The notes: generated by a model from the letters alone, not told the origin. A stretch of DNA of 64,000 nucleotides from Candidatus Woesebacteria bacterium (GCA_020061305.1 JAGUYM010000011.1:2996-66995), one strand, 5' to 3'; counted from the stretch's first letter, positions 103 through 63,969 are shown. Made by a program: numbers and translations.

Positions 103-1380
103 TCATTTTTGTCTGAAATAATGATTGAAAACGATAACAAAGGCATAAATTGCAAAAATCGTATTTGAAATTAAAAGGGCAATAGCAGGGCCCAACCCTC
201 CAAAAAGTTTAGTAAAGTAAAGATTAAAAATAAAAATCAAGGCAATTTGAATAAAGGAAAAGGTACCGATAAAAACTGGTTTCCTCATCGAATGGACAAT
301 TGCAGTTACTGCGGGAGTTGAAAAAATAAATGGTATCAAAGATACTAACAAATATTGCAATATTTTAATTGATTCAAAATATTTTTGCCCAAAAAGAACT
401 AGAACAAAAGGCTTGGCAATTATTATCCAAACAATAATCCCAAGTATTATTGGTATTGTAAACAATGTGGACTTAACTAGATACCTTCTCTCATTTTGTT
501 TATCATTAAACCTAGCAAATCTGGTTGAAAGAACCGAACTTAAACTTGAAGACAAAACAATTATAAAAGATGAAAGACGCGACGCTATTGAATACTCTCC
601 AACTACAACCGCGTTAGTTAAGTTGGCCAGCATGGTTACATCAAGTCTGCCTGAAATTGATGAAATTATTCTATTTACCCCCAACCAACCTGAGAATTTA
701 ACTAGTTCTATATATTTTCTTTTCTCAATTTTTACTTTTAAAAATTTAATTCCAATAACACTAAATCCATAAATAATTGGTAATATTGTACTTAAACCAT
801 AAGCTAAAAGGGCGGTATTTAAATTTGTAGGTAAAAAAATTATCAACGCTAAAAAGTATAAAATTCTGGGAATCCCCAAGGACCAATCAAGAAATACCGA
901 AGGCCAAAACTTTTTATAAGCCATCATTATATATGGAAAAGTTAGCCATGCAGTTAATCCGATCGAAATAAAACTAACCCAATAGGAAACACTTATATCG
1001 TTTGTGGATAAAAAATTAACTGCAACATATTTAGGTATTAAAAGTACAATCCCAGAAACAATTAATATTGATAGAAATCTAAGTATAAACGAAGCTTTAA
1101 GATATTTTTCTGCACCGGCTCTATCATTTGCGCCCAATTTAACTGAGATAAAATTAATCATCGCAGTTGTAATCCCAAGATCAGTAAAAGAGGAGATTAT
1201 AATAATTAAGTTTGCAGCAGCAGAAAAAATTCCAAATTCAGCAACAGTTAGTTTTTGAGTCAAAATATAAACAAAAATGAAACCAAAAAAGGCAGAAAAA
1301 CTATTTCCTATAAATAGTGTAAAAGTATCTTTTGATGTACCATTAAACAGAATTTTTGTGGCTTTTTCTACTAACTGCAT
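103..1380 (-). CDS. Polysaccharide biosynthesis/export protein, Wzx-like flippase (MOP superfamily)
   Basis: 425 aa and about 12 predicted TM helices. The hydrophobic pattern and layout resemble oligosaccharide flippases. It sits in a glycosylation cluster. Confidence 0.55.
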   Translation of the reverse strand: MQLVEKATKILFNGTSKDTFTLFIGNSFSAFFGFIFVYILTQKLTVAEFGIFSAAANLIIIISSFTDLGITTAMINFISVKLGANDRAGAEKYLKASFILRFLSILIVSGIVLLIPKYVAVNFLSTNDISVSYWVSFISIGLTAWLTFPYIMMAYKKFWPSVFLDWSLGIPRILYFLALIIFLPTNLNTALLAYGLSTILPIIYGFSVIGIKFLKVKIEKRKYIELVKFSGWLGVNRIISSISGRLDVTMLANLTNAVVVGEYSIASRLSSFIIVLSSSLSSVLSTRFARFNDKQNERRYLVKSTLFTIPIILGIIVWIIIAKPFVLVLFGQKYFESIKILQYLLVSLIPFIFSTPAVTAIVHSMRKPVFIGTFSFIQIALIFIFNLYFTKLFGGLGPAIALLISNTIFAIYAFVIVFNHYFRQK

Positions 1381-3721
1381 GCCCTAAGTATGACATAAAA
1401 AGTGTTAAAACTGAAACCAAACTAATATTGACTGCAGTATCTAAAATTTCTTGATCTTTAAAATAAATTTTGGAATTTATATTACTTTCATTTACCTCAA
1501 AACCATTTGTTATGGAATTAATTGGAAACGGATGACTCTCCCCCAACCGCCAGGATTTATGATAACTTTGATTTAATATCAACCATCCATTCTTAGGCTC
1601 AGAATTTATTTTTGAAACAGGCAATTTTGAATCTGAATTATATATTTTATAATTATCCAGCTCATTCCTAACTTTTTTGTAATATTGCTGATATTCATCT
1701 TCTTCAATTATTAAAATGTTCCCAATTACATTAAAACCACCATTATTTTTCAACACGAAGCCTTCAGTATCTTGACCAAAAACAATATCCTGACTAAACC
1801 ATCTAAAAATGTTTCCATCCGGAATTTTTAACTGCTTGTCATCTATTGATATACCCCTTGAATTTTTGCCAGCCAATCCTCTTATAAAGATTTTGTACTT
1901 TTTACCCCCTTCGAAATCATGTCTAACCTTTACAACTTCATTTTCTTGAGTCGATAGAATAATCCCGCTATCAAAATTTATTTCTTTAGTATCCACATCA
2001 CGAATTAAAAGTTGATACTTCCAAGTTAAATAATCATCCTTTAAATATTTACCCCAACTATTCTCCGCCAATAAAGATGGATCAATAAACTTATTTTTTA
2101 GACCTGCAATTATCAAATCATCTAAACTTTTATTATTTAAGATAAAGAAAAGTTTTTCATTTGAAATTTGTAATAGCCGTCCCAAGTCAGTTTTTCCATC
2201 TTCGATAAAAATTACTCCATACTCAGGAACTAACTTTTGTGCACCAATTGGAGAACCAACAACTACCGCCATTTTATCAATATAATATTTTTCAGGCACT
2301 GTATTTTCTAATGTAGCAATTTCTGGTTTTTTTGAAGATAAATAGACTAAATTTTTGATGCCCAAACTTCTAAAAAAGTTAAGATAATGATCTCTCTGCA
2401 TGAAATTGAATCTATCCTCTGATCCATAATTATCTACTGCAAATGGCAAATAACCGGCAAGTACTCGCCCGTCTACTGCTTGATTATTTTCTGTTTGATA
2501 GGCAAGCTGTGGCTTATGGGGAATGTATATTGTCCTTGAAAAGTTATTATCTTTTACTATATTTTTTAATTCTAAAAAATTATTAATTTCTGATTCACCT
2601 TTTAAATTATTATTTGTCCCAAAAATTAATCCGGGCACAAGAGGTATTATCAATGAGACTGGTATTAAATATATTAATAATTTATTTTTAATTCCGTCAT
2701 AATATTTAGCAACCACAAGTGAAAAAGCTAATATAAGTAATGGGAAAAATTTTGTAGAATCACGAAAGACAGATGCAAATGGAAAATTATTAATAACATA
2801 AGAATAAATTTCTCCAAAAGGACGGGATTCACCCTTAGCTAAAAATGCAAAAGACAAGAATAATATGCTTAAATAAACTTTTACCTTACTAGGCTTAATT
2901 AGATTTGACAGAATAAGTAATATCGGAAATACCAAGAATAACACATTTGGTTCAATTGTCTTGCCAAATTCATTAAATGGCCAGTGAGGTTGATATAGAA
3001 GTAATGAATCTTTTAATGTAACTAATTTTAAATTTGATATAAATGTCGGTGCCTCAATAGTGACTAGTTTAATTATTGGATATATCCAATAAAAATTTAT
3101 TAACATAACAAAGGTTAAGGTTAAGACTAACTTAAAAATTTTTGAAAATTCAAATTTTGACAATAATAATCCAAGAGTTAAAGACAGCATCAAAAAACGC
3201 GGATCAAAAATTGCAATTAGTGACAAAAATGAAAGTGTCTTAAAAAATTTAAAATTAGTAATTGCCTCAACTGCCAGTGGCAGTATTGAATAGGCAAGCA
3301 TGACACCCAATTGTCCGCCATCAATCAAAAGAATAAAATAAGTATTGAAAACATATATTAAACCCATTAGAAATTGACCGTTATTTTTATACCCCAATGA
3401 TTTAGCTAATTTCTGCGCTGAATAAATTGATAAAAATATGCCGGGCAAGTAAAAAAACAATCTAACTAATATATTCCAATCAAGATTTAACAAGTTACCC
3501 ACAAAACCGGCAAGATAAGTCACAGGATATAACCATAAAATTAGGTGCAAGCCACCGAATGGAGTGTCGTACGATCCCCAAATATTTATTTTATTTGTTA
3601 AATCAAAATAAGCTTCTTTGTAAAAATAAACCGAATCCAAATCTACTAAATAATTGAATGAAAATATACCTGAAAAAACCAAGGTTGACAAAACAACCAA
3701 AATTAAATTTTTGTATTTCAT
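1343..3721 (-). CDS. Large polytopic membrane protein with a C-terminal soluble domain; putative GT-C-type glycosyltransferase
   Basis: 792 aa. The N-terminal half is multi-TM and the C-terminal roughly 400 aa are hydrophilic. This is the layout of extracytoplasmic polyprenol-P-dependent transferases. I did not recognise a family. Confidence 0.35.
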   Translation of the reverse strand: MKYKNLILVVLSTLVFSGIFSFNYLVDLDSVYFYKEAYFDLTNKINIWGSYDTPFGGLHLILWLYPVTYLAGFVGNLLNLDWNILVRLFFYLPGIFLSIYSAQKLAKSLGYKNNGQFLMGLIYVFNTYFILLIDGGQLGVMLAYSILPLAVEAITNFKFFKTLSFLSLIAIFDPRFLMLSLTLGLLLSKFEFSKIFKLVLTLTFVMLINFYWIYPIIKLVTIEAPTFISNLKLVTLKDSLLLYQPHWPFNEFGKTIEPNVLFLVFPILLILSNLIKPSKVKVYLSILFLSFAFLAKGESRPFGEIYSYVINNFPFASVFRDSTKFFPLLILAFSLVVAKYYDGIKNKLLIYLIPVSLIIPLVPGLIFGTNNNLKGESEINNFLELKNIVKDNNFSRTIYIPHKPQLAYQTENNQAVDGRVLAGYLPFAVDNYGSEDRFNFMQRDHYLNFFRSLGIKNLVYLSSKKPEIATLENTVPEKYYIDKMAVVVGSPIGAQKLVPEYGVIFIEDGKTDLGRLLQISNEKLFFILNNKSLDDLIIAGLKNKFIDPSLLAENSWGKYLKDDYLTWKYQLLIRDVDTKEINFDSGIILSTQENEVVKVRHDFEGGKKYKIFIRGLAGKNSRGISIDDKQLKIPDGNIFRWFSQDIVFGQDTEGFVLKNNGGFNVIGNILIIEEDEYQQYYKKVRNELDNYKIYNSDSKLPVSKINSEPKNGWLILNQSYHKSWRLGESHPFPINSITNGFEVNESNINSKIYFKDQEILDTAVNISLVSVLTLFMSYLGHAVSRKSHKNSV

Positions 3722-4074
3722 TTTTTCTTTACAGTTTCAACAATTAAAAGCACCAGACCAACAATCAAGCTTTCGAATGTGTAAACTGCGGTTCTTTCTG
3801 CCCAAATATCAATTTTTAGTAATTTAATTAAACATGCAAATATCCAAAATAATAATGATATAAAAAACATCATCCTACTATTAAAATTTAGCAAAAATAT
3901 AGACAAAATAAGTATTAAAAATACAATAAAATTAACTGAAATTTCAAAAAATGGGTGAAAATATCCAGCAGACCTCATCAAGACCATAAACACAAGTAAG
4001 GTGTTCAAAATAAGCATATTAAATAAATACTTTTCTCCCCATTTACGCACTTTATTTTTTATTTTTGTAGCCAT
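3718..4074 (-). CDS. Small 4-TM membrane protein, possible GtrA-like flippase component
   Basis: 118 aa with four predicted TM helices. The segment LLNFNSRMMFF loosely resembles the GtrA-family N(R/K)xWTF motif. The assignment is weak. Confidence 0.3.
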   Translation of the reverse strand: MATKIKNKVRKWGEKYLFNMLILNTLLVFMVLMRSAGYFHPFFEISVNFIVFLILILSIFLLNFNSRMMFFISLLFWIFACLIKLLKIDIWAERTAVYTFESLIVGLVLLIVETVKKK

Positions 4075-7000
4075 ATCTTAAATAGAGATAATATTATTGT
4101 AAAAATAGTAAATGTTGAAATAGCAACTCCTAAAATAAAATGTCTTTGTGGGAAATAGATTATCTCAAATCTATAATCTATTCCTCCGGTATCGATAAAC
4201 CAGGCATTGGAATATGAATCAATTGTAAAATGTTCCTCTACGAATCTAATTTTTGAACCATTCAAATCCGTCACCTCAAGTTTCCAGTCAGGAGAATAGT
4301 TTTCGGCAAAAACCAAAACATTCGGACCAGTAACTTTTGTTACCTGGCCAGTATGTTTTACGGGGGTTGAGCTGGTTAGATTAACTTTCGGTTGCTGACT
4401 ATTGTCATCAATTACACTAGGTTCTGATATAAAAAATAAATCATTCATAAAAAGTTTGTAAACTCTTAAATTGTCATAAGCAACTCTAGTACCCAAGGAA
4501 TTATTTATAAAAGGAGCAGCTAAAGAAATTGTCATTTTGGATTCTGTTTTTACGGGTTCATAATAAAAATTAAAATTTGTTCTGTCTAAATAACTGGGTA
4601 GGTTTTCTGTTTGAGTCTTAATCAAATTTTCACTTCTCTGTTGATAGACATAGACAGTAGACATGTTTCCATGACTCCATTCATAGTCTAATTGGATAAA
4701 ATAAGGATTATTGAAATCAAAATCTTCTAATTCAAAATCAGCTGAAACATCAATGTCCCCCCTATTTAAAATACTTAATTGTTTATTGCCATTATTTTCA
4801 GTGATTGTTAACTCAGCTTTATCATTTTGGTGTGTTTTTTTATAGTTAATTTGTCCCTCAAAATTTTCGAATTTTATTAAATTTGAGGAGGTATCATACA
4901 CCACTTCGTGTAATCCTTTACTTAAATATATTTTATTAAAAAATATGTGAGAATCAGTTATTTTTTGTACGGGCCAGCTTTCATCAATAGAATTATGAAC
5001 AACATCGATTTTAGTCAAATTTTCTGATAAATCATAATTTTCTATAATTGGTAAATAATAACCATCTTCATCTATACTGAATGTAAACTTAACTTCTGTC
5101 ATGTTTTGTGCCGTAATTCTGTTTAAAGTTATATTTGGAAGTTTTTGGTGCTTGTTGTAGTTATCTTTTTGTGAGTTATTTGAAACAATAATTTTACCCG
5201 CAGGAATCTTATTAGGAAATATTTTCGATGTAACATTATCCTTGCTATTTAATAAATGTTGATCTATACCCAAAATTGATAACGCCTTTACAGCGTAATC
5301 ATTATTATCACCGCTAAACCGATAATAAAAATTATTAGCCAAAAATATTTTAGGTAAACTGATTGTTTTTTCATTTAAAAAATAAATGTTCCATTTCTCG
5401 AAATTAACTTTTTTAAGCCGGTCAAAAGAACCAGATAGCTCAGGTGATAAAGTATGCTGATCTTTCTTTTCAAGGATAATTGTTGCGTTTAATTTATTGG
5501 CCAAATTAAAAACAGAGCTAAACCTGTCTTTTCTGATATTTTCATACAAAAGTTGAATAATTTGATTTATTTCTGTACCAGTGTTGTTAATTCCCGAAAA
5601 CAAAACTTCTTTATCTATAAATAAACTCACTACCGGCTCAACACCCGTATAACCCCATTTGTATTTTTCCAGCTGGTCATCGGGATAAGTTATAATTCTA
5701 CCAGAATTTAGATTTTCCAAATAATTTGCACTATCAAAAAGATAGTCAGGAAAATTTACAAAAAAGCCATTTGAACTGTTTGGTCTAAATATTTTTCCAG
5801 TTATCAGGGGGTAACTGTAAAACAAATTACCAACAATTAAAATCCATGCAATAAATTTGATATAAATACTATTATTGTGTTTTTCAATCAATAATGCTAT
5901 TAGCCCCGCCATAGATAGTGTTACAAAAAGGGTAAAAATATACCAAGGGCTTCTAAAAAGAGAAAAATAAGGAAGGTGTTCTGCTAACCATTTAAAAATT
6001 ATTCCTGTGGGTTCGTGAGTTCCAGAACCTAAAAATATCCCTAGCATCAACATTATCGCAAAAGGAATATAAAATCTTAATTTCTTTTTATCTATGTATA
6101 CTAATGAAATTAGAGCTAGTGATGGAACAATAAAACTAAATATCAAAAATGGAAATCTATAAAAATAATTTACTACATAAGGCAGATATATTGGCAATTT
6201 TGACACACTATCAAATGTATACCAATCCCAAGCTCCCTGTAGTCTCATAATATTTAATATACTGGTATTAGCAGAAAGAGAATCAATCCAATTATTAAAA
6301 CCAATTGAAGTAATACTTGAATTTTGTGTAACACTTCTTAATACAAAGCTTATTGTTGGAAATATCCAATAAGAACTGATCGCGAAGATAATTCCGATAA
6401 TAAAAGTAAGTATCTTACTAACTTTCTTAATATTGTTATCGACAATGGCAAAAGAAATTGCGAATATAATAAAGGTTAATAGTGCAGTTATAAAATAGGC
6501 AGGGTTGATGCCGGCACCAGATAATATCAAACTTGTAAAAACCAGCAAAACAGACGCTTTGGATTTACTCATTGAGTCCAGATACAACCCCATGAAAATA
6601 TGTAAAAGCAATGGAACTCCCGCCACCAATGATAAATTCGACACTTTTACATTTTCCCAACTATTAAACATATAGATATTCAAGCTATATAAACAGACAA
6701 AGAGAATTCTAGTTAGTTGTGCTTTAAATAAATTCTTTGAAAAAATGTAAGAACTTACAACAATTGTGGCAAACCAAAACACTAAACTGGTTTTTTCAAC
6801 CATCTGAAGAGATAATCCTATTATATATGGGACAAACTGTACTAAATGGAAAAATATTCCAGCTGGAGCAAACGAAAAATCAGATCCACCATTGCTCAAA
6901 TTATTCCACATATAAAATCTCCTAATTAGCCATAGCTTAGGGTTAAGTGGAAAATTCGTATCAACTCCGTTGATAATTGCGTCCCCCTTACCAAAAAACC

Positions 7001-7085
7001 AAATTATTGGTATAAGTGACAACAAAACCAGCACAAAAACATGCCAATATTTCTTACATAAATTAATTAATTTATTTTTTAACAC
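4059..7085 (-). CDS. Large GT-C-like membrane glycosyltransferase, AftD/DUF3367-like (putative)
   Basis: 1008 aa. The N-terminus GVDTNFPLNPKLWLIRRFYMWNN...GGSDFSFAPAGIFF loosely matches the start of AftD-family arabinofuranosyltransferase-like proteins. It has many TM helices and a large C-terminal domain. Confidence 0.35.
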   Translation of the reverse strand: MLKNKLINLCKKYWHVFVLVLLSLIPIIWFFGKGDAIINGVDTNFPLNPKLWLIRRFYMWNNLSNGGSDFSFAPAGIFFHLVQFVPYIIGLSLQMVEKTSLVFWFATIVVSSYIFSKNLFKAQLTRILFVCLYSLNIYMFNSWENVKVSNLSLVAGVPLLLHIFMGLYLDSMSKSKASVLLVFTSLILSGAGINPAYFITALLTFIIFAISFAIVDNNIKKVSKILTFIIGIIFAISSYWIFPTISFVLRSVTQNSSITSIGFNNWIDSLSANTSILNIMRLQGAWDWYTFDSVSKLPIYLPYVVNYFYRFPFLIFSFIVPSLALISLVYIDKKKLRFYIPFAIMLMLGIFLGSGTHEPTGIIFKWLAEHLPYFSLFRSPWYIFTLFVTLSMAGLIALLIEKHNNSIYIKFIAWILIVGNLFYSYPLITGKIFRPNSSNGFFVNFPDYLFDSANYLENLNSGRIITYPDDQLEKYKWGYTGVEPVVSLFIDKEVLFSGINNTGTEINQIIQLLYENIRKDRFSSVFNLANKLNATIILEKKDQHTLSPELSGSFDRLKKVNFEKWNIYFLNEKTISLPKIFLANNFYYRFSGDNNDYAVKALSILGIDQHLLNSKDNVTSKIFPNKIPAGKIIVSNNSQKDNYNKHQKLPNITLNRITAQNMTEVKFTFSIDEDGYYLPIIENYDLSENLTKIDVVHNSIDESWPVQKITDSHIFFNKIYLSKGLHEVVYDTSSNLIKFENFEGQINYKKTHQNDKAELTITENNGNKQLSILNRGDIDVSADFELEDFDFNNPYFIQLDYEWSHGNMSTVYVYQQRSENLIKTQTENLPSYLDRTNFNFYYEPVKTESKMTISLAAPFINNSLGTRVAYDNLRVYKLFMNDLFFISEPSVIDDNSQQPKVNLTSSTPVKHTGQVTKVTGPNVLVFAENYSPDWKLEVTDLNGSKIRFVEEHFTIDSYSNAWFIDTGGIDYRFEIIYFPQRHFILGVAISTFTIFTIILSLFKIWLQK

Positions 7086-8700
7086 TTTTTAGTTTTAATC
7101 TAATTTCGTTAGTTATATTTACTAACTTTTCTTGTTTACTGTCCCAAGAATAGGCAACAACTGATTCTACTGGCAGATTATATTCTTTAATTGTGTCTTT
7201 TAGCAAATCAAAATCTCTAAAATACCCAAATCCACGACCGTCAATTTCTTTGTATCCCTGACTATCAATTGGCCACAGATAGGCATTGTCAAAAAATTCA
7301 ATGGGGAAATTTTCATAGTCATTAAACCAAACCAAAAGTGTTTGACCAAATCCTGATTGAAAAGGTAAAATTTTTACTGCATCTGGCAAGCCATAATAAC
7401 TGGTATCACTTTCTATATAAAATATCTGTCTATCTTTAAGTTTCAAATTATCTCTGGATATTTGATTTAAAATGTTTAGTCTATTTTTGCCAACTTCTGA
7501 TATACCCTGCAACTCAATCCTTGTGATTAACATATTAAAAACTACAAATATAGATAAAGTCGCCGCCGACCATTTCCAATTTTTGAATAAAGAGGCAATA
7601 GAAACAATAAAAAAGATCATTCCAATTGAAGGCATATATAAATTTCTCGAATCAATTATTGGCACAAAGCCAGATCTCCCCGGTGATAATGCATAAATTG
7701 CACTATTTGCACCTACAAACAAAAGGCTTAGTAATGCAATCACTGCAAGATTTCTTTTCTTATACTTTATGGCAAAGATAGATATTAGAACTGTAAATCC
7801 AAACACTATATTGGTTAACAAACTAAGAATATATTTAAGATAAAAATTATCAAAATATGTAGTTCCGGGTGCACCTGCAATACCATCTGGTAATTTATCT
7901 GCGATAAATTTTGATGTTTCCAAAAATACATATGGAGGAATAAATGTTTGAGAAATACCCTTTATTGGGAATGTGGCAATATTAAATAATATTTCAGATT
8001 GTGATTGCGATTCAGTTACAACTGGTGCCGTAATATCTGAGAATATTCCAAGAAAGGTAAGATAACGAAAAACAACATAAAACAAGGCAACAGCTACAAA
8101 ATATATCATTCGTTTATCAAAAAGTCTTTTTTTGGCAAAGTAGTTTTGGAATAATATTAAAATCGGATAAAATGCAAACATACCAATTGCAATTTCTTTA
8201 AACAACATCGATAGTATTAGCATTAAAATAGAAAGGAATAGCTTCGCTTCAAGGAAATAGATTAAAGACAATAAAACCAAAGTTGTCGCCCCCTGTGTTG
8301 ATCCATTTGCAACAACCCATGACGTAGCCTGTTGACCTGAAGCAAAAACAGCAAACAAAATGCCACTAAAAACTGCCTGCCAATCCTCCTTGAACATCTT
8401 CTTTGCTAAATGAAAAACAAGATACGAATTTAAAATATGCCAAACAATACTAACCATGGCCCAATTAAAATAATTAAATTTAAAAAAATATGTCAACACA
8501 GCAAATAAAATTCGGGTAAAAGGAACATAGTGGCCAGGATCAGGTATCAGGGCTTTAAAAATATAATTGTCATACCCTGATAAATATATTTCAGCAAAAG
8601 CAGACCATTCATCTTGCTGAAAGAAGTTATTAAAAATTGGAATATAAAGTAAAACAACTAAAATGCTCAAAATTAAAAATGGTAATATTTTTTTAATCAT
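7072..8700 (-). CDS. Polytopic membrane protein, GT-C-like glycosyltransferase (family not resolved)
   Basis: 542 aa and about 12 TM helices, with a hydrophilic C-terminal roughly 150 aa. It has an N-terminal QQDEW motif. Its start overlaps the upstream gene. Confidence 0.4.
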   Translation of the reverse strand: MIKKILPFLILSILVVLLYIPIFNNFFQQDEWSAFAEIYLSGYDNYIFKALIPDPGHYVPFTRILFAVLTYFFKFNYFNWAMVSIVWHILNSYLVFHLAKKMFKEDWQAVFSGILFAVFASGQQATSWVVANGSTQGATTLVLLSLIYFLEAKLFLSILMLILSMLFKEIAIGMFAFYPILILFQNYFAKKRLFDKRMIYFVAVALFYVVFRYLTFLGIFSDITAPVVTESQSQSEILFNIATFPIKGISQTFIPPYVFLETSKFIADKLPDGIAGAPGTTYFDNFYLKYILSLLTNIVFGFTVLISIFAIKYKKRNLAVIALLSLLFVGANSAIYALSPGRSGFVPIIDSRNLYMPSIGMIFFIVSIASLFKNWKWSAATLSIFVVFNMLITRIELQGISEVGKNRLNILNQISRDNLKLKDRQIFYIESDTSYYGLPDAVKILPFQSGFGQTLLVWFNDYENFPIEFFDNAYLWPIDSQGYKEIDGRGFGYFRDFDLLKDTIKEYNLPVESVVAYSWDSKQEKLVNITNEIRLKLKSVKK

Positions 8701-9432: not shown

Positions 9433-9434
9433 TT

Positions 9435-56933: not shown

Positions 56934-57583
56934 TGTGTTTTTCTAACCTTAATTAAGTGTAACATTCCAAGATTAAATTTTTTATTAACCTCAATCTTAA
57001 AACCTGCTTTTTTGACGGCAGTAACTAGATAATTATTCCTATATGTTTGAATATGTGTATCTCTCCAAACCCACCCTCTTGGATAGAAATGAAGCCACAA
57101 CCACCAAACAATTTTGAATAAATTATTATCAGACGGAACCAAAAATACTCCATAGCCGCCCTTTTTCATAACCCTCTTAAACTCTTTAAAGACTTTCATA
57201 GGATCAGCAACATGCTCTAAAGCCTCAAGACAAAAAACTGCATCAAAGTAATTGTTAGCAAAAGGCAATTTGTGTGCATCACCTACTGTAAATTTCATTC
57301 TTTTATTTTTTGCCCAATGCTTTTTTGCCCAAGCTATCGAAGTCTTAACCACATCAAGACCAATAAATTTTTTAGGATTAATTTTCTTAAAAATAACGTT
57401 TGAAAAAACTCCATCCGCACAACCTACATCTAATACAAATTCTGCAGGTGTCGCCACTTTCCTAACTTCTCTAAACCTGGTGTTATGCCAGATTCTTTGG
57501 AAAAAATCTTTTTTTAAACTTTGATGGTACCAATCAGCAGGTACATGTTCATGTAAATTTTCTGCAATCTTTTTTGTATCCAT
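56930..57583 (-). CDS. Class I SAM-dependent methyltransferase
   Basis: Motif I VLDVGCADGVFSNVI, acidic GLDVV, and MKKGGYGVFLVPS. Confidence 0.7.
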   Translation of the reverse strand: MDTKKIAENLHEHVPADWYHQSLKKDFFQRIWHNTRFREVRKVATPAEFVLDVGCADGVFSNVIFKKINPKKFIGLDVVKTSIAWAKKHWAKNKRMKFTVGDAHKLPFANNYFDAVFCLEALEHVADPMKVFKEFKRVMKKGGYGVFLVPSDNNLFKIVWWLWLHFYPRGWVWRDTHIQTYRNNYLVTAVKKAGFKIEVNKKFNLGMLHLIKVRKTQ

Positions 57584-57607: not shown

Positions 57608-59146
57608 TTACCTTATTTTGATTCTTTTTTGTATTATGATTCCGTCAAACACTTTTTGTTCAAGAACTTTTGATCTTGAATTTTCTTCGTCCATTGATTC
57701 TTTAATATATTTTAAGGGTATCCCGCCCGATGGTTCTATTATCAAATAATATATTTTTGTATCCCTTGGTGTTTTTTCAAGATTGTCTCCCCAATATCCA
57801 ACCTGATCTTTACCGTGCCAGTAAGGTAGATAGCCATATTTTTTGTAACCATATTGATTATAAAGTGCCGACCAAGTTGTATTTAACCAAAGCGGTGCGG
57901 TAACAGTATTAATACTAAAACTTTTTCCTTCCGCTGTAGTGTAAGTATAATCAATAGCTTGAAATAAATTTGAGAGTAACATCTGCTGACGAACGGCAAA
58001 AATAGTTTGACCCGATCCGTTTTTGTTTACAACTGTTCTAATATTTGAAAATATGATTAAACCGGTCAAAAGAAGAGATAAAATTTTGCTTTTTAGATAC
58101 AATTTTGATAAAAATATGGCCATTAATATGCAAGCCGCACTCCCAATTCCTACTGCAATATATGGGGTCATTAATCCACCCAAGTAAAATAACCAAATAT
58201 GAGAGGTTAGAAATAAAAACAAAAATAGTTGATAACTCGATTTTTTCTTTTTGGCCTTAGCCAATGACAATAATAAAAATAAAATCAAAGAAACTGTAAT
58301 TAGTTTACCAACAGCCAAGCTAATGGGGAATAAATTCAAATTAAAAACATTTGTAAGTTGATTAAAATAGATTTCTACAAAATCAAAAAATGTTTTTGAG
58401 CTAGCAATTTTGTCACCCCCAGTCAACAAATATTCAAGACCATGAATACCCTGAAAGCCAAACTTAATCTCAGAAATGATTAGTGTAGAAACGCCAACTA
58501 CCAATCCAAAAATGCTCTTTAAAATTTCCTTTAATTTCAAACTATTTCTGTTTAAAAAAATCCAAATAATAATTGGAAACAGATGGTAAATTAAAAATAA
58601 ATCAGATTGCACACTTAAACCCAAAAATAAACCCGTTAAAAACGAGAAAATTCTTTTGCTTTTAATTGTCCAAAGCCATAATGATAAATATGTTAAAGGA
58701 ACAAACCAAACAGCCATGGCAGGGTTTGATAACCAAAGCGCATATTGTGAAGCCTCAAACGAAAAGGTAAAAAGTAAAGATGATAGAAACGAAGCCCGCC
58801 TGTCCCTGGTTAGATAGAAACAAAGAAAGTAAATAATAATTATTGTGAAACTACTAAATAGAGAAAGCCACACAAATGGGGCTGTTAAACTACTATCCCA
58901 AACCAAATATGGAATAAGTAAAAAGTATAAGAACAAGACTCCATGATAAAGTCCCGGAGCGTTAGCAGGAAGTCCTTGAATTTTGAAATCTCCATTAATA
59001 ATTTCTTTTACTACAAATAAATCTCTAGCTTGATCAAACATAAAATTAACTGCAAACTTATTTGTATATAGATTTCGAATAAAAAAACCTAGTATAAATA
59101 AAGAGATTAGAATTAAGGTCGTTTTGCTTGAAACAAACTTTTTCAT
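57608..59146 (-). CDS. GT-C-like polytopic membrane glycosyltransferase (ArnT/PMT-like)
   Basis: 512 aa and about 12 TM helices, with an N-terminal acidic loop FMFDQARDLFVVKEI. The C-terminal roughly 120 aa are soluble. Confidence 0.45.
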   Translation of the reverse strand: MKKFVSSKTTLILISLFILGFFIRNLYTNKFAVNFMFDQARDLFVVKEIINGDFKIQGLPANAPGLYHGVLFLYFLLIPYLVWDSSLTAPFVWLSLFSSFTIIIIYFLCFYLTRDRRASFLSSLLFTFSFEASQYALWLSNPAMAVWFVPLTYLSLWLWTIKSKRIFSFLTGLFLGLSVQSDLFLIYHLFPIIIWIFLNRNSLKLKEILKSIFGLVVGVSTLIISEIKFGFQGIHGLEYLLTGGDKIASSKTFFDFVEIYFNQLTNVFNLNLFPISLAVGKLITVSLILFLLLSLAKAKKKKSSYQLFLFLFLTSHIWLFYLGGLMTPYIAVGIGSAACILMAIFLSKLYLKSKILSLLLTGLIIFSNIRTVVNKNGSGQTIFAVRQQMLLSNLFQAIDYTYTTAEGKSFSINTVTAPLWLNTTWSALYNQYGYKKYGYLPYWHGKDQVGYWGDNLEKTPRDTKIYYLIIEPSGGIPLKYIKESMDEENSRSKVLEQKVFDGIIIQKRIKIR

Positions 59147-60177
59147 TTTAGAATTTCAGTAATATTTTTTTTGAAGTTATCGTAACCAAACTTTGAAGAT
59201 GTTTCTATTGCATTTGTTGATATGTTTCGCATTTCTCCAGTTTTTTGTACTACGAATTTTGTTAAATTAATAAGTTCTTTTTCAGACTGCCATAGAAAAC
59301 CATTCCTTCCGTTATCAACAACCTCTTTATAACCACCTCCACCATAGACTATTGGTACACAGCCTGCAGACATTGCTTCTACTAATGTAATTCCAAAATG
59401 CTCAACTCTCTCTGGACTTTTTACTTCATCTTCACCAAAACCAGCACCGGACCAAAATATTTTTGATTTTCCAAATATGTCTTTTAATACTTCTAAAGAA
59501 GGGCTTTCTACAAATTCTATATTGGCACCACTAGCAAGTTTTTTTAAGTTTTTTAAATTTACATCAGAACCTACTTCTACCCCACCAGCTAAAACCAGCT
59601 TCCAATCCTGGAATTTTTTTTCCTTAACCAGCTTCTTAAATTGCTTTATCAAAACATCGTGGCCTTTATTCTGGGTTAAATTTGAAAATCTAGCCACATA
59701 ACACAATTGATTGATTTTTCTTTTTGGTTTATATATATCTGTTCCAACCGGTGGGTATAAAACCGTAGAATCAACTTTATATTCCTTATCTATTACATTT
59801 TTAGTAAATTTAGAATTGCAAATTATTTTATTAACTCTAAATAATTTCATTTTATTTAAAAGGGAAGATCCGTTAACATCATGAAAAGGAAATTGAAAAT
59901 GGATATAATTTTTGATAGCCCGAAGTGTTGGAATACTGCCGTCACTTACCCAAAAAATAAGATTATAATTTTCGCCTCTATTTACAGAATCGACAATTTT
60001 TAAATTTGAAGGGAATTTTAATCCAAATCTTTTGGATAACTTATCTAAAATACTCTTTTCTTTCCATTCAATATCTACATCATAGCCAATCTCTGCCAAA
60101 ACTTTAGCAAAAGTTAGAGTATACCTTTCCCCCCCACCCAAGGTATCTAAATACGGATTGTATATCGCAGCTTTCAT
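59143..60177 (-). CDS. GT4 family glycosyltransferase
   Basis: FGITLVEAMSAGCVPIVYGGGGYKEVVDNGRNGFLW, with the E-x7-E region. Confidence 0.65.
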   Translation of the reverse strand: MKAAIYNPYLDTLGGGERYTLTFAKVLAEIGYDVDIEWKEKSILDKLSKRFGLKFPSNLKIVDSVNRGENYNLIFWVSDGSIPTLRAIKNYIHFQFPFHDVNGSSLLNKMKLFRVNKIICNSKFTKNVIDKEYKVDSTVLYPPVGTDIYKPKRKINQLCYVARFSNLTQNKGHDVLIKQFKKLVKEKKFQDWKLVLAGGVEVGSDVNLKNLKKLASGANIEFVESPSLEVLKDIFGKSKIFWSGAGFGEDEVKSPERVEHFGITLVEAMSAGCVPIVYGGGGYKEVVDNGRNGFLWQSEKELINLTKFVVQKTGEMRNISTNAIETSSKFGYDNFKKNITEILK

Positions 60178-60231
60178 TTCATCATTTTAAACCATCTAAA
60201 TATTTTTCAGAAGATACAATTGGCTTGGAGT

Positions 60232-60345
60232 TACACCAAATGTAGCTTTTGATATTTCTGCAGTTAAAATTTTACTCACATCTACAACAGAAAACCACCA
60301 TTCTTTTTTAAATATTACAATTCTTGTTTCCTTTGGAGAGATCAT
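60232..60345 (-). pseudogene. 37-codon ORF with a BRO-N/KilA-N-like motif; probable remnant of a phage-type antirepressor gene
   Basis: The translation MISPKETRIVIFKKEWWFSVVDVSKILTAEISKATLV* resembles the BRO-N N-terminal consensus (..vRvv..dgepWFvakDvakiL..) and then stops after 37 aa. It lies in the only large intergenic gap, 271 bp long. Confidence 0.3.
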
Positions 60346-60448
60346 TAATTAATGATGAACCAAAACTTCACCGAAGTCAAATTATTTTTGAATATAGTCT
60401 TTCAATTTTTGAAATGCTATTTTTCTCATGCTAATTTTATTTTTCACT

Positions 60449-61165
60449 TTACTTTTCTTTCAATTGCATTTCCCACAACTTAGAATATGAGATGAGCTTA
60501 CTATAAATTTGGTAAATCCCATATATTATTCCCATTTTTCCATCAAGGAATGCTTTTTCTGCTATAAATCTTTTCCAAAATTCCCTAAAACCTGCACTAA
60601 AAAATCTGAAACCATTCATTGGGGGATGATTTGCATCAAACATGAGTTTAGCCTCAATTTCAGACCATTTATTTGTTTTATCTATCATCTCAGAAAGTGT
60701 CATGTTTTTGTGGTGAATCATTGGATTTTTTAAATGTCCAATCTCGCCTTTATAGATTGGTTCTTCATGGACATCACCCACCCATTTTTTTAAACTAATT
60801 CTTTTAAAAAATCTCTTTTGATAATCTGGATATTGGCCTGAATATTTAAATTCTTTGTTTAAAATGAAATTTCTACGCGGTATTGCGTACGCGCTTACTT
60901 TTGGCTGTTGGCTGTTGACTGCTGACCAAAGCTCTGCGTGAAGCGCAGGCGTAATTTCTTCGTCTGAATCTAAATATAAAATCCAGTCGCACTTGGCTTT
61001 TTTTAATCCTTCATTTCTCCAATCACTAAAGCTTCCCTTTTCTCCAACAACCAAAACCAATTCATCACACCAAGAAACTGACTTTTTGGCAACTTCTAGA
61101 AGTTTTTCATTATAATATCCGCCATAAATTATAACGGCAGATATTTTCTTTTTATTTTCAACCAT
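60449..61165 (-). CDS. GT2 family glycosyltransferase (small WaaE/KdtX-like type)
   Basis: ILYLDSDEEITPAL...IPRRN. It is a paralog of 39093..39977 and 61129..62046. It contains a GC-rich repeat-derived insert. Confidence 0.6.
   Translation of the reverse strand: MVENKKKISAVIIYGGYYNEKLLEVAKKSVSWCDELVLVVGEKGSFSDWRNEGLKKAKCDWILYLDSDEEITPALHAELWSAVNSQQPKVSAYAIPRRNFILNKEFKYSGQYPDYQKRFFKRISLKKWVGDVHEEPIYKGEIGHLKNPMIHHKNMTLSEMIDKTNKWSEIEAKLMFDANHPPMNGFRFFSAGFREFWKRFIAEKAFLDGKMGIIYGIYQIYSKLISYSKLWEMQLKEK
60901..60927. repeat. Short GC-rich direct repeat ttGGCTGTTGGCTGTTGACTGCTGACC inside the GT2 CDS 60449..61165
   Basis: GGCTGTT occurs twice, followed by degenerate copies. It lies within an atypically GC-rich patch of about 80 bp (60870-60960) that includes a small hairpin CTGCG-TGAAG-CGCAG. 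Confidence 0.7.
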
Positions 61166-62046
61166 AATTTTCTAAATATGTTTTTTTCTTCCTTTAATTT
61201 GCTTTCAAAAATCCACCACACAAAGTCCTTGTAACAATTTTTAAATATGCCAGATACTTCCTCAACTGACATTTTCTTCTTATAAAATCCTTGTTTCTGC
61301 CAAAGTTTCAAATACAAAACAAGTTCTGATGCAGATTGTAAAAGTGATAAAGCCAAACCATGTAAGCCGTCCTTATATCCTTTTTCTGCAAAATATCTTC
61401 TTAAAAATTCGGCTGTAGGCTTAACTATCAAATCAATCCAACTAAATTCTTTTCCACTCTTAACCAAATCTCTAACTTGGACAGTAGTGTATCTATTCAT
61501 TCTGGTTATATATTCCTCAAGTGATGAATAATGCATATGTTTAATTGCAAACTTTCCATCAATAGGTAAATCTATTCCGACCCCCGTAGTTATTGGAATT
61601 GAATGTATCTTATTGCCCCAAGAAACATTTCCCTTCCTAAAAAATCTTATGTTAAAATCAGGCCACCAACCCGAATACTTCATCCATTTGCCAAAAATTA
61701 TATTCTTTCTAGGAATTCTATAATAATCTCCTTTTGGCGTCTTTATTTCCTTTTTAAAAAAATTTTTAAGCTCAGGTTTGACTTCTTCGTCGGGATCCAA
61801 TATCAATACCCACTCGTTTTTGGCCTTTTCTATGGCAAAGTTTCTCGCCGGCTCTACATAATTTATTTTTTTATGCTTGAAAACCCTAGCCCCGAAACTT
61901 TTAGCCAGTTCTCTTGTCTTATCTGTAGACATCATATCAACCACAACAATGTCTTTAGAAAAATCACGGACAGAAGCCAAAGTTCTGGGAAGTTTTTTTT
62001 CTTCGTTTAATGTATTAATCACTACCGAAATCTTGGCCATATTCAT
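61129..62046 (-). CDS. GT2 family glycosyltransferase (small WaaE/KdtX-like type)
   Basis: ISVVINTLNEEKKL...IVVVDMMSTDKT...VLILDPDEEVKPEL...IPRKN. Confidence 0.65.
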   Translation of the reverse strand: MNMAKISVVINTLNEEKKLPRTLASVRDFSKDIVVVDMMSTDKTRELAKSFGARVFKHKKINYVEPARNFAIEKAKNEWVLILDPDEEVKPELKNFFKKEIKTPKGDYYRIPRKNIIFGKWMKYSGWWPDFNIRFFRKGNVSWGNKIHSIPITTGVGIDLPIDGKFAIKHMHYSSLEEYITRMNRYTTVQVRDLVKSGKEFSWIDLIVKPTAEFLRRYFAEKGYKDGLHGLALSLLQSASELVLYLKLWQKQGFYKKKMSVEEVSGIFKNCYKDFVWWIFESKLKEEKNIFRKLWLKIKRKYLPL

Positions 62047-63718
62047 ATATTATACTTTTTTTATTCTCAAAAATCTTCTTTAGATCTAAATCACTGGGGC
62101 CCAATTTTAATAACTCACCCACAAGTGGTGAGTTTTCCTTAACTAGGTATAAATATTTAATTTTATTCTTTTTTAAAAAATCCTTACCTGCTACAGGATC
62201 TAAATTAGAGATAAACCAAGCAACTTGATTTCGCCTTTTTCTCCAATCGTAACCCATGATATTTAAATTAACCTCGTCTTCAATAAATACCTTTTTACCA
62301 GAAATTGCCGATACATATGCTGTCGAATCATAGTAATAAAGTGATCTGGGCGGGTTAGCATTTTCAACTTTCGCCTTATCTGAATCAAATAAATAGGTCA
62401 AAACAATTCCACCTGGTTGCTCTTCCAAAAAAGTTAAAGCTACTATTTCTTCTGCAGAAACAATAGCCTGCGGCATTTTTGGTAAATAATGTTGAAGTGT
62501 CGACCAAACCGAGAAAAGCGAAAAAAATATGAATATATAATATTTAATATTTAACTTAATTCTGCTAAATGAAATTCCTGCAAAAATTGCAAAGAAAAAT
62601 AAATAATAATAAAAAAATTGAATTGTATTCCATGGCGTACCTTTTTGCACAAAAAGTAGAGGAATTGCCATTGCAGACATCATAATGGATATAATAAATA
62701 CAAATACGAGTTCTATCTTAACTTTAATCAAATATAAGAAACCAACAATTCTTAGACCCATGTTGCCTACAACAAATATTATAAAGGCTATTAAATAAGC
62801 CAAAATTCCTTTAAACCAAATATGTCCCATTTTATAAGTAGTCATAGCTGAATAAAACCTTTCCCAACCCAATCGATCTGAATAGCTCATCATTGTTTCC
62901 AAAAACCAAAACGGTTGCCAAACAAAAGTGGACAGACCATCATTTTTGGTTATTGCAAATAAAACTAAGTTAAGAATAAGTGAACCTAAAAATACACGCA
63001 GGTAGTATGTAGTATGTAGTATGTAGTATGCGTATATACAAGTAATAGCTAAACTACCTAAAACTAAGATTGCGGCGTAAGCCTTAATTTGTATTAATAA
63101 ACCAAAAAATAAAATACTAAAAAATAGATTCTTTTTTTGTAAAGCAATTAATCCAGATAAAATAAAAATTAAAGATAAGGCAAATGGAGGATTTATAAGT
63201 GTAGAAACTGCTTGCTGTGACCAAAACATTGATTCACCTGTAATTACTCCATCTCTTAACAAAGTAACTAAAAAACCAAAACTTCCACTAAAATAAACAA
63301 ACATGGTTGCCCACAAAGCCTCAGTTTTGGAACCACGCCAACTCCAAACGAACCAATAAACCAATAAACCAATTCCTAATGCAAACAACGGTGGGAGAAT
63401 CTGGAAATATAAATTACTAACAGAAATACCAGTTAATTTATGTAGTAACGCTAAAAATAAATCGAAGCCAATGTGATAATTTTTGATTGTCTCACCAGCA
63501 AAAACTGGATTTTCAAAATTTCCTGAAGCCAAACTTCTAGCAAGTGCTAAGTGCCATATACCATCATGGCCGTTTGCTCCCCAAAATCCAAAGCCAAAAT
63601 AATATAACAGCCCACTCCTCACCATTGTCAAAGACCAAATTATTGTACCCAATGATATTACAAGGATGTGTTTCCAGTATCTAACAATTTTGTTCATTGG
63701 CACTATTTTTCTCCCCAA
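62015..63718 (-). CDS. Polytopic membrane protein, paralog of 46290..48152 (GHDG-WH...NP-FAGE family)
   Basis: Carries the shared motif GANGHDGIWHLALARSL...ENPVFAGETIKNYH. It contains a (GTAGTAT)4 tandem repeat in the CDS. Confidence 0.45.
   Translation of the reverse strand: MGRKIVPMNKIVRYWKHILVISLGTIIWSLTMVRSGLLYYFGFGFWGANGHDGIWHLALARSLASGNFENPVFAGETIKNYHIGFDLFLALLHKLTGISVSNLYFQILPPLFALGIGLLVYWFVWSWRGSKTEALWATMFVYFSGSFGFLVTLLRDGVITGESMFWSQQAVSTLINPPFALSLIFILSGLIALQKKNLFFSILFFGLLIQIKAYAAILVLGSLAITCIYAYYILHTTYYLRVFLGSLILNLVLFAITKNDGLSTFVWQPFWFLETMMSYSDRLGWERFYSAMTTYKMGHIWFKGILAYLIAFIIFVVGNMGLRIVGFLYLIKVKIELVFVFIISIMMSAMAIPLLFVQKGTPWNTIQFFYYYLFFFAIFAGISFSRIKLNIKYYIFIFFSLFSVWSTLQHYLPKMPQAIVSAEEIVALTFLEEQPGGIVLTYLFDSDKAKVENANPPRSLYYYDSTAYVSAISGKKVFIEDEVNLNIMGYDWRKRRNQVAWFISNLDPVAGKDFLKKNKIKYLYLVKENSPLVGELLKLGPSDLDLKKIFENKKSIIYEYGQDFGSD
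63002..63029. repeat. Heptanucleotide tandem repeat (GTAGTAT) x4 inside the membrane-protein CDS 62015..63718
   Basis: Read directly: gtagtatgtagtatgtagtatgtagtat. It encodes ...ILHTTYY... on the minus strand. Confidence 0.9.
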
Positions 63719-63969
63719 GCCTCGATTTCTCCCGTATATGCTTTAAAGGCAAAGTTCTTAAGTTTGGGAAAGAATGAAATTAGTTTAATTAGGTTATCAA
63801 ATACGAATGGTGAATAATATCTTAATCTACTTAAGACATATTCCACACTCAAAACATGATAAGTAATTCTTGTTTCAACATTTTTAAATCCAGATAATTC
63901 AAGGGCCAACTTCAAATTTGATTGAGAAAAGTACATAATATGTTCTCCTGGCTTGTAGTGATACCACAT
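63703..63969 (-). CDS. Hypothetical protein, possibly truncated by the window edge
   Basis: 88-aa ORF at the window end whose upstream part may lie beyond 64000. I recognised no motifs. Confidence 0.2.
   Translation of the reverse strand: MWYHYKPGEHIMYFSQSNLKLALELSGFKNVETRITYHVLSVEYVLSRLRYYSPFVFDNLIKLISFFPKLKNFAFKAYTGEIEAWGEK

Follow-up and report, generated by a model that had tools for sequence, protein, structure and literature searches.

A collinear Microgenomates locus rich in GT-C glycosyltransferases and its predicted role in surface glycoconjugate assembly

Introduction

In mycobacteria and corynebacteria, arabinogalactan and lipomannan/lipoarabinomannan (LM/LAM) are made by a machinery (EmbA/B/C, AftA-D, MptA-C, PimE, Ppm1 and decaprenyl-phosphate-arabinose (DPA) synthesis) in which many GT-C glycosyltransferase families work outside the membrane, each enzyme forming one linkage from a polyprenyl-phosphate sugar. 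The three-component Gtr systems (GtrA/GtrB/GtrV; B. subtilis CsbB-YfhO; Listeria GtlA-GtlB/GtcA) have one GT-C enzyme, ArnC and ArnT serve the aminoarabinose modification of lipid A, and the lumenal steps of eukaryotic N-glycan synthesis (ALG3/9/12/6/8/10 and STT3) combine flipping of the Wzx/Rft type with serial additions by GT-C enzymes that use Dol-P-Man or Dol-P-Glc. Here we analyse a 64-kb stretch of DNA from a Candidatus Woesebacteria bacterium (GCA_020061305.1 JAGUYM010000011.1:2996-66995; 64,000 nucleotides, hereafter the window) that encodes 19 large polytopic proteins of predicted GT-C type among cytoplasmic glycosyltransferases, flippases and methyltransferases. An earlier note made from the sequence of this window had described it as a surface glycosylation island that modifies an extracellular glycan, S-layer or glycoprotein.

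The Candidate Phyla Radiation (CPR) makes up a large part of bacterial diversity, is mostly uncultured and has an envelope chemistry that is scarcely known. Full-text literature searches on GT-C enzymes and glycosyltransferases in CPR, Microgenomates, Woesebacteria and Patescibacteria returned no description of such a locus, and multiple dolichol-phosphate mannosyltransferase annotations have been remarked on in passing for Peregrinibacteria and Saccharibacteria (PMC4736985, PMC6031116). The locus described here is distinct in its scale, in being a single collinear locus, in its CPR host with a genome of about 1 Mb and in several GT-C families that have no curated model and are annotated as hypothetical. 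Our analysis indicates that the window is probably most of a vertically inherited, operon-like Microgenomates locus of at least 76 kb for a two-compartment surface-glycoconjugate pathway. The classification of its genes is solid, and it is the product and the acceptor of the pathway that we infer.

Results and Discussion

Gene content of the window

Open reading frame (ORF) listing combined with hydropathy analysis gave 56 non-nested genes (g01–g56) covering 99.6% of the window. Their packing is operon-like, since of 41 junctions between same-strand genes 37 are overlaps or gaps of at most 25 bp. Pfam scans of all 56 window proteins identified 12 GT2 glycosyltransferases (Glycos_transf_2; g09, g10, g13, g17, g19, g20, g22, g29, g37, g50, g54 and g55), 4 GT4 glycosyltransferases (Glycos_transf_1; g24, g28, g32 and g53), 10 class-I S-adenosylmethionine (SAM) methyltransferases (g06, g07, g08, g11, g15, g16, g18, g25, g27 and g51), two Wzx flippases (Polysacc_synt; g01 and g30) and one polysaccharide deacetylase (Polysacc_deac_1; g26), exactly reproducing the counts of the earlier note. 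The same note had estimated about 19 large polytopic GT-C-like proteins, and 19 were found, of 381–1008 aa, when the Wzx proteins and a VKOR fusion were set apart (g02, g04, g05, g12, g14, g23, g31, g39–g43, g45–g49, g52 and g56). These GT-C candidates account for 50.5% of the bases, a share that rises to 91% once every glycosylation-related gene is counted, and 33 of the 39 genes from position 20,754 onward lie on the minus strand, which agrees with the note's picture of few intervening genes and one dominant strand from 21 kb. The genes outside glycosylation are a redox block (g33–g36), a 23S rRNA intervening-sequence protein (g38) and the small g03, g21 and g44.

Evidence that the polytopic proteins are GT-C enzymes

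Eight of the 19 polytopic proteins scored above the Pfam gathering cutoffs for PMT_2 (g12, g23 and g39–g42), Mannosyl_trans2 (PIG-V; g31) or PTPS_related (g48), families that we take to be members of the Pfam GT-C clan. Four others had sub-cutoff matches (g04 to GT-C_AftD, g45 to GT87, g47 to PMT_2 and g49 to PTPS_related) and seven had no Pfam match at E ≤ 0.01. Five paralogue sets, {g39–g42}, {g47–g49}, {g43, g56}, {g45, g46} and {g02, g04}, were recovered by blastp at 25–40% identity. Profiles of window paralogues alone were too weak for hhalign, searches of PDB sequences with the thin paralogue profiles A2, A3, A4 and A5 and with g23 gave nothing useful, and NCBIfam models searched against the ten unassigned membrane proteins matched only g02, to the trehalose-lipid delivery protein MmpA (3.2e-10, far below cutoff).

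Deep profiles were built from homologues in 77 genome loci, word-index searches and a 50%-identity representative library, and were compared by local hhalign. Against the PMT_2 array family (g39–g42) the probabilities were 98.4% for g52 (E = 1e-14, 370 columns), 97.7% for g05, 96.9% for family C (g43/g56; 413 columns), 96.7% for g14, 96.0% for family B (g47–g49), 95.7% for g12, 94.2% for family D (g45/g46) and 91.0% for g23. The g02 family reached 98.5% against family B (PTPS_related) and 98.9% against g04, the g05 and g14 families matched one another at 99.4%, and neither of the Wzx proteins nor the VKOR-DHODH fusion, which served as negative controls, ever exceeded 1.1%. All 11 proteins below the Pfam cutoffs were tied to GT-C families in this way, at 91–99% hhalign probability.

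For two families in which no homologue carries a Pfam domain, g02 and g14, AlphaFold2 models were made from deep alignments. The g02 model (pLDDT 94.6, pTM 0.91) had AftD as its top solved Foldseek match (6w98, E = 7.7e-8, 867 columns, TMq 0.45), followed by STT3, PglB, DPY19, ALG9 and PimE, and its outer domain gave matches of about 100 residues to CBM6/35-like folds (CBM, carbohydrate-binding module). For the g14 model (pLDDT 91.4, pTM 0.92) the top match was STT3 (6s7o, E = 6.4e-6, TM 0.53), followed by PglB, DPY19, ALG12, EmbB and Pmt4.

An acidic residue located 5–20 residues past the first transmembrane helix (TM1) was 96–100% conserved in all 8 family alignments of 8–158 sequences each, at D36/E37 in the PMT_2 array, D34/D35 in g47–g49, D52 in g43/g56, D24 in g45/g46, D38/D42 in g52, D30/E31 in g05, D29 in g02 and E34 in g14; this conserved Asp/Glu argues for catalysis. 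Hydropathy, a crude method for topology that misplaced TM1 in g43 and g56, predicted 6–10 TM helices for the 19 proteins. The shared layout is a short basic N-terminal tail (in most, no longer than 12 residues) and TM1, then a first loop of 41–117 residues (18 of 19), more TM helices and usually a C-terminal soluble domain of 100–550 residues, which is closed by a last TM helix in g02, g04 and g47–g49. All 19 proteins, which make up at least eight sequence families, are accordingly best described as GT-C-type by prediction, seven of them by profile or fold alone, and the possibility raised in the earlier note, that most of these membrane proteins are transporters or belong to unrelated families, was not borne out.

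A sizeable fraction of the proteins could nevertheless have functions other than transferring sugars from lipid-phosphate monosaccharides, whether as Wzy/WaaL-like polymerases or ligases, as factors of the MmpA type that transport lipids or glycolipids, or as non-catalytic scaffolds. The MmpA match of g02, the compact g45 and g46, which lack an outer domain and match GT87 weakly, and the need of a Wzx pathway for a polymerase where none is annotated are all in keeping with such roles. Conservation of the acidic residue in every family argues instead for catalysis, and what the profile and fold comparisons retrieved were GT-C transferases, not Wzy or WaaL, so that we hold this explanation to be improbable.

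The GT-C families

The largest set is the tandem PMT_2-family array g39, g40, g41 and g42 (40389..46422, minus strand), whose PMT_2 matches (E = 2.9e-13, 2.8e-6, 4e-7 and 1.1e-6) all lie above cutoff. Its members share 27–31% identity (blastp) and a D36-E37 motif that is 99% conserved among 82 sequences, and their nearest solved relative is ArnT (5ezm, 5e-5). Two other genes of this family encode C-terminal outer domains, g12 (13663..15696, minus; PMT_2 E = 9.2e-10, 39.4 bits against a cutoff of 26.1; outer domain of 279 aa) and g23 (24786..26840, minus; PMT_2 E = 2.3e-15, PMT 1.8e-6; 262 aa). The PIG-V-like g31 (33260..34405, minus) matched Mannosyl_trans2 (E = 4.3e-7, 30.1 bits against a cutoff of 22.4) and PMT_2 (3.7e-5).

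The tandem PTPS_related-family triplet g47, g48 and g49 (51146..56014, minus) has mutual identities of 29–40%, and each member carries an outer domain with a C-terminal TM helix; the PTPS_related match of g48 (E = 7e-8) is above cutoff and that of g49 (4.6e-6) falls just short (25.8 bits against 26.4). Family D consists of the pair g45 and g46 (48702..51156, minus), compact 10-TM proteins that are weakly GT87/PimE-like (GT87 E = 2.4e-4, below cutoff), with H22 and D24 98–100% conserved.

The remaining families are covered by no Pfam model above cutoff. The g02 protein (1343..3721, minus) combines an AftD-like membrane domain with an outer domain of about 400 aa that includes a CBM6-like beta-sandwich and with a C-terminal TM anchor; none of its 113 homologues has a Pfam domain, and D29, D134 and D321 are 99–100% conserved. 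Its AftD-like paralogue g04 (4059..7085, minus) has 1008 aa, a 553-aa outer domain and a C-terminal TM helix, and matched GT-C_AftD (PF11847) at E = 3e-4, its score of 19.3 falling short of the cutoff of 26; g02 gave no match to this model. The Pfam-less g05 (542 aa; 7072..8700, minus), assigned by hhalign, has 934 representatives in the 50%-identity library, with D30 and E31 after TM1 96–98% conserved, while g14 (486 aa; 16909..18369, plus), assigned from its AlphaFold2 model and Foldseek, has a 100% conserved E34. The Pfam-less g52 (57608..59146, minus) keeps D38 and D42 and was assigned by its hhalign match to the PMT_2 family. Family C comprises g56 (62015..63718, minus), whose GHDGxWH motif includes D52, conserved at 96%, and its Pfam-less paralogue g43 (46290..48152, plus; 31% identity), the lone plus-strand gene of its block, which occupies an identical inverted position in at least 15 relatives. 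The longest ORF of g43 begins with TTG and has 133 bp (46290-46422) in common with the 5' end of g42, and alignment with g56 suggests that the true start may lie downstream, yet the orthologues are of similar length (608–632 aa).

Extent and conservation of the locus

The exact window proteins were found on a contig of 77,458 bp and on Logan assemblies of several runs. On these same-organism contigs further genes of the locus lie to either side of the window, so that positions 103–63969, given in the earlier note, take in less than the whole locus. The left end of the window cuts a GT2 gene (279 aa), of which the 5' part is present (1..106, minus), and the right end cuts a methyltransferase gene, of which the 3' part is present (63703..64000, minus). 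Left of g01 (contigs L006/L007) are a GT2, a methyltransferase, a 436-aa PMT_2-like protein, a GT4 and a GT2, and right of g56 (L009) are a methyltransferase, a 561-aa PMT_2-like protein, a third Wzx (486 aa), a PMT (533 aa) and another polytopic protein. The locus spans at least 76 kb and encodes at least 23 GT-C enzymes in about 76 kb, compared with 19 in the 64 kb of the window. The chromosomes of two complete relatives measure 0.98 and 1.08 Mb. At some 76 kb or longer, the locus would take up roughly 7% of a chromosome of that size (about 1 Mb), making plausible the note's suggestion that a large share of a small genome is invested here.

An alignment search with g47–g49 in one genome per GTDB species identified 77 loci. 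The closest were from Microgenomates/Woesebacteria metagenome-assembled genomes (MAGs; 60–75% identity), followed by Daviesbacteria (about 50%), the remoter Shapirobacteria and Roizmanbacteria (29–42%) and lastly Chloroflexota (24–28%). By this ranking the organism belongs with the Woesebacteria-like Microgenomates (CPR/Patescibacteria). About 25 Woesebacteria/Microgenomates species share, at 50–79% amino-acid identity, the order around the g48 orthologue, g56-g55-g54-g53-(g52)-g51-g50-g49-g48-g47-g46-g45-g44-g43(inverted)-g42-g41-g40. The order g49-g48-g47 was retained in 36 of 58 CPR loci and g45-g44-g43-g42 in 15 of 58. Daviesbacteria retained the triplet and g56/g43-like genes, with g22/g29-like synthases upstream, Shapirobacteria had a g48-like gene amid 5–7 PMT_2 copies, and the Chloroflexota homologues were singletons in unrelated surroundings. 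Collinearity also extends to the left half, where a 59%-identical g14 homologue is flanked by the g11-to-g23 series, unchanged but for an inserted epimerase (L088), and a 64%-identical g02 homologue lies within a g05-g04-g03-g02-g01 series that is followed by the same left-flank genes. NAD-dependent epimerase/dehydratase genes occur in or at the edge of relatives' loci (L088, 15559-16500 and 20827-21461; L089, 1-377 and 2525-3505), and none was found in the window itself. Third-party-annotation (TPA) MAG records titled 'uncultured Gammaproteobacteria bacterium' (L011, L020, L024, L026–L028, L034, L038, L043, L047, L049, L056, L059, L061 and L068) carry a collinear Microgenomates-type locus at 50–75% identity, and these names look wrong.

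Median identity of locus proteins to their best and next window paralogue was 51% versus 36% for family B and 55% versus 29% for family D. Since orthologues are closer than paralogues, the GT-C duplications appear to predate the divergence of these lineages. One-to-one orthologues in the same position across species would further mean that the enzymes are non-redundant and that the product is conserved and not a variable antigen, which argues that each GT-C paralogue has its own conserved job. From these comparisons the locus appears to be core, vertically inherited and ancient.

Wzx, GT2, GT4, methyltransferase and deacetylase genes are typical of variable polysaccharide loci, and indels do occur among the relatives (the epimerase added in L088; g52 or g46 absent from some loci), as would be seen in a horizontally acquired, strain-variable surface-antigen island of the O-antigen or capsule type under diversifying selection. 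Such an origin is very improbable, as the paralogues are old (25–40% identity), the same gene order with one-to-one orthologues recurs from species to species and, in part, from one candidate class to another, and the GC content of the window (about 30%, range 0.28–0.34) shows no compositional break. Scans of the window for tRNA, Rfam families, tandem repeats, promoters and terminators found nothing relevant, with no tRNA and no Rfam match, and Pfam detected no integrase or transposase among the 56 window proteins. The term island used in the earlier note was dropped on these grounds (flat GC, no tRNA or mobility genes, and an order kept in Woesebacteria and partly in Daviesbacteria and Shapirobacteria; the flanks of the locus lie beyond the sequence seen), and the comparison with related genomes that the note proposed revealed a conserved and not a strain-specific locus.

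Lipid-linked sugars, flippases and the proposed pathway

The earlier note had pointed to two GtrB/DPM1-like synthases with C-terminal TM pairs, and both were recovered. The GtrB-type polyprenyl-phosphate glycosyltransferase g17 (19809..20753, plus), a GT2 domain with a C-terminal TM hairpin (223-270), aligned over residues 7–308 with Synechocystis GtrB (5ekp, E = 1.5e-78) and also matched ArnC (1.5e-42). The ArnC-type g22 (23846..24793, plus), a GT2 domain with two C-terminal TM helices, aligned over residues 4–294 with ArnC (9bhc, E = 9e-44), with further matches to GtrB (1e-27) and dolichol-phosphate mannose synthase (DPMS; 3.7e-24). Two other GT2 proteins match DPMS in the catalytic domain only, lack TM helices and are candidate synthases, g13 (15725..16912, plus) for a polyprenyl-phosphate hexose, being DPMS/AglJ-like (NCBIfam AglJ 3.2e-32, below cutoff; best PDB match Pyrococcus Dol-P-Man synthase 5mlz, 3.6e-11), and g29 (31234..32043, minus) for a polyprenyl-phosphate sugar, being DPMS/PpgS-like (best PDB match 5mlz, 8.6e-15; NCBIfam PgfS 2.3e-14 and PpgS 1.5e-11, both below cutoff). 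Both Wzx-type proteins pass the family cutoffs for Wzx (MOP superfamily): g01 (103..1380, minus), with 425 aa and at least about 9 TM helices, matched Polysacc_synt (E = 4.3e-25, 89.1 bits) and Polysacc_synt_3 (8.7e-11), and g30 (32009..33259, minus) matched Polysacc_synt_3 (E = 2.2e-18, 66.9 bits).

In the pathway that we propose, the 16 cytoplasmic GT2/GT4 enzymes and the methyltransferases would produce methylated lipid-linked oligosaccharides for the Wzx proteins to flip, while g17, g22 and perhaps g13 and g29 would load single sugars onto polyprenyl phosphate. The GT-C enzymes outside the membrane would then extend a polysaccharide or lipoglycan with those sugars, one linkage each, in assembly-line fashion, and might act on surface proteins too. 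A polyprenyl-phosphate sugar as their outer-face donor is the natural reading of the co-encoded GtrB/ArnC/DPMS-like synthases, in line with the extracytoplasmic glycosylation put forward in the earlier note. That note spoke of modifying an existing glycan, which probably understates the system, as a set of GT-C enzymes so numerous, so diverse and with one-to-one orthologues is a better fit to a complex polymer being built step by step.

One alternative concerns the acceptor, namely that the GT-C enzymes are mainly protein O-glycosyltransferases (PMT/GT39-like), with paralogues each glycosylating different secreted proteins, S-layer subunits or pilins. CPR cells bear S-layers and abundant pili, PMT_2 is the best Pfam family for 6 of the proteins, g23, g39 and g40 have secondary PMT matches, and the g14 model resembles the protein-acting oligosaccharyltransferases STT3 and PglB and the C-mannosyltransferase DPY19; the PMT-, STT3- and DPY19-like similarities keep protein acceptors in play. 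Against this, PMT_2 also covers ArnT and other lipid and glycan modifiers, and ArnT is the array's nearest solved relative; the AftD-like g02 and g04 have a CBM-like domain that, as modelled in g02, makes a glycan the likelier acceptor of this family; and Wzx flippases with 16 cytoplasmic glycosyltransferases fit a polymer. We therefore regard protein O-glycosylation as unlikely to be the main role, although it is compatible with the proposed pathway and the two are not exclusive.

Several observations weigh against construction of a surface glycoconjugate by this route. Among the 56 window proteins we found no initiating phosphoglycosyltransferase (no Bac_transf, no Glycos_transf_4/MraY/WecA) and recognised no Wzy (Wzy_C), Wzz or ligase, and the window has no LCP-type attachment enzyme, nucleotide-sugar synthesis gene or GtrA-family flippase. 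The window is thus not a complete Wzx/Wzy-dependent locus, and the lacking genes may sit elsewhere in the genome; with initiation, polymerase, ligase and attachment genes missing, the window shows neither how the pathway begins nor how it ends. Just 2–4 candidate lipid-sugar synthases would serve at least 19 GT-C enzymes. Seven of the 19 GT-C calls rest on hhalign probabilities (two also on AlphaFold2, whose models cover 2 of 19 proteins) and a further four on sub-cutoff Pfam matches with hhalign or paralogy. All of the evidence is computational, the sequence would fit a polysaccharide and a protein acceptor alike, and the roles of the 10 methyltransferases and the redox block are guessed.

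Small proteins and the redox block

The 118-aa, 4-TM g03 (3718..4074, minus) lies between g04 and g02 and resembles GtrA in size and TM number only, the earlier note having listed a GtrA-like candidate. Assignment to GtrA (PF04138) was rejected, as at E ≤ 10 the one Pfam match of g03 was a chance-level poxvirus family (E = 1.5), and NCBIfam gave none. On account of its position, translationally coupled between two AftD-like genes and kept in a relative that has a 123-aa gene in its place (L089), g03 is a possible partner or lipid-sugar flippase. The 193-aa g44 (48124..48705, minus), with one N-terminal TM helix and no Pfam match, is kept between the g45 and g43 orthologues in Woesebacteria loci at 48–75% identity and may be a conserved partner of the GT-C array or its substrate or acceptor. 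The small, N-terminally anchored g21 (23334..23843, plus; DUF5667 E = 8.2e-5, below cutoff) has a 159–164-aa gene in its position in L002 and L088.

Amid the glycosylation genes, g33–g36 form a redox block (35449..39090). The first of these (g33, 35449-36984, minus) is a single 511-aa ORF with a TTG start in which Pfam found an N-terminal VKOR domain (4 TM, E = 2.6e-22) fused to a dihydroorotate-dehydrogenase-family (DHODH) domain (E = 8e-47). No description of a bacterial VKOR-DHODH fusion was found in the literature searched, a protein search of genome contigs found no relatives of g33, and the exact product is absent from the protein collection, where the TTG start is probably called differently. 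Pfam assigned g34–g36 (36999-39090, minus) to a short-chain dehydrogenase/reductase (SDR), a PNPOx-like flavoprotein and an aldo-keto reductase. By analogy with the logic of DprE1/E2, g33–g36 might be a module for oxidoreduction of lipid-linked sugars, or might be unrelated to the pathway. The neighbouring g38 (39974-40342, minus) encodes a 23S rRNA intervening-sequence protein (PF05635 E = 1.3e-36); it weakly resembles the Avd proteins of diversity-generating retroelements (bAvd 0.0037), and no reverse transcriptase is present in the window.

Remaining glycosyltransferases and modifying enzymes

Two GT2 proteins with two C-terminal TM helices are not GtrB-like, g09 (10966..11994, plus; TM at 273 and 303; Glycos_transf_2 E = 1.7e-18), for which this was judged by NCBIfam, and g10 (11960..12955, minus; E = 1e-11; best NCBIfam match MftF-like, 2e-29, below cutoff). 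Other GT2 genes are g19 and g20 (21431..23343, minus; Glycos_transf_2 E = 3.7e-26 and 2.8e-27) and g37 (39093..39977, minus; 8.9e-20). Pfam also identified the GT2 g50 with the SAM methyltransferase g51 (56046..57583, minus) and the GT4 g53 with the GT2 genes g54 and g55 (59143..62046, minus). The other GT4 genes are g24 (26837..27883, minus; Glycos_transf_1 E = 2.6e-28), g28 (30119..31243, minus; 2.8e-31) and g32 (34416..35465, minus; 4.2e-24). The sole sizeable intergenic gap (60178-60448, 271 bp) lies between g53 and g54 and contains a 49-aa ORF that is called in Logan contigs too; it has no terminator-like site, and promoter-like matches were no commoner than in shuffled sequences.

SAM methyltransferases are encoded by g06 (plus), g07 and g08 (both minus; 8740..10933, Methyltransf_11/23/25, E = 1e-15 to 1e-20), g11 (12988..13641, minus; Methyltransf_11 E = 2.8e-8), g15 (plus) and g16 (minus; 18366..19833, Pfam) and g18 (20754..21434, minus; Pfam). 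A plus-strand group (27906..30117) has the deacetylase g26 (Polysacc_deac_1 1.2e-8, 35.3 bits against a cutoff of 23.1) between the methyltransferases g25 (Methyltransf_11 2.4e-24) and g27 (Methyltransf_11 1.9e-11).

Implications

With half of a conserved locus of at least 76 kb given to GT-C enzymes, construction of a surface glycan would be among the largest biosynthetic investments of these reduced cells, and on that account the glycan is a likely determinant of attachment to hosts or particles. A more far-reaching proposal is that the principal envelope polymer of the Microgenomates is built outside the cytoplasmic membrane by an ancient line of more than 20 GT-C enzymes from this one collinear locus (about 7% of a 1-Mb genome). 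This would be the densest GT-C system known, with at least five Pfam-less families (g02/g04, g05, g14, g43/g56 and g52) and a heavily methylated, chemically undescribed glycopolymer as its product; we offer it tentatively, as a possibility about which we remain somewhat doubtful. Eight orthology-defined GT-C families, several without a curated model, and four candidate lipid-sugar synthases provide targets for structural work, heterologous assays and enrichment glycomics.

Comparison with known systems

Protein O-mannosyltransferases (PMT, GT39) share with g39–g42 the Pfam PMT_2/PMT matches and the D-E motif in loop 1, but no MIR domains were detected here and the similarity is limited to the GT-C core. 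The Gtr systems are alike in the placing of a GtrB-type synthase (g17) beside GT-C enzymes and differ in having one GT-C enzyme where this locus has 19, and in their GtrA-family flippase, none of which was detected here; by this comparison the scale of the locus suggests construction rather than decoration. The ArnC/ArnT system resembles the locus in that g22 aligns with ArnC over nearly its full length and the PMT_2 array is nearest to ArnT, but no ArnA, ArnB, ArnD, ArnE, ArnF or lipopolysaccharide (LPS) genes were seen in this locus, and to our knowledge the Microgenomates are not known to make LPS. The lumenal ALG steps offer the same sequence of flipping and serial GT-C additions, and the g14 model matches STT3, ALG12 and DPY19, while the locus described here is bacterial, uses different families, has three times as many GT-C enzymes and carries no evidence of en bloc transfer to Asn.

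In the mycobacterial machinery, whose genes are scattered, DprE1/E2, galactan and mycolate genes are found that this locus does not have, whereas here a single collinear locus in another phylum, within a genome of about 1 Mb, encodes sequence families that are mostly distinct and partly without Pfam models. M. tuberculosis has roughly 15–20 GT-C enzymes in 4.4 Mb, a number that the approximately 19–23 of this locus equal or exceed. The likeness extends from the use of many GT-C families outside the membrane to individual proteins, as AftD combines, in the way that g02 and g04 appear to, a GT-C domain with a large outer domain of CBM-like fold and a C-terminal TM helix, g45 and g46 are weakly PimE-like, and DPMS/Ppm-like synthases are encoded in the locus. 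In summary, the locus represents a compact natural multi-step GT-C pathway that can be set beside those of mycobacteria and eukaryotes, and for it the mycobacterial arabinogalactan/LAM machinery appears to be the nearest functional analogue and Gtr/CsbB-YfhO, ArnC/ArnT and the lumenal ALG steps the nearest in logic.

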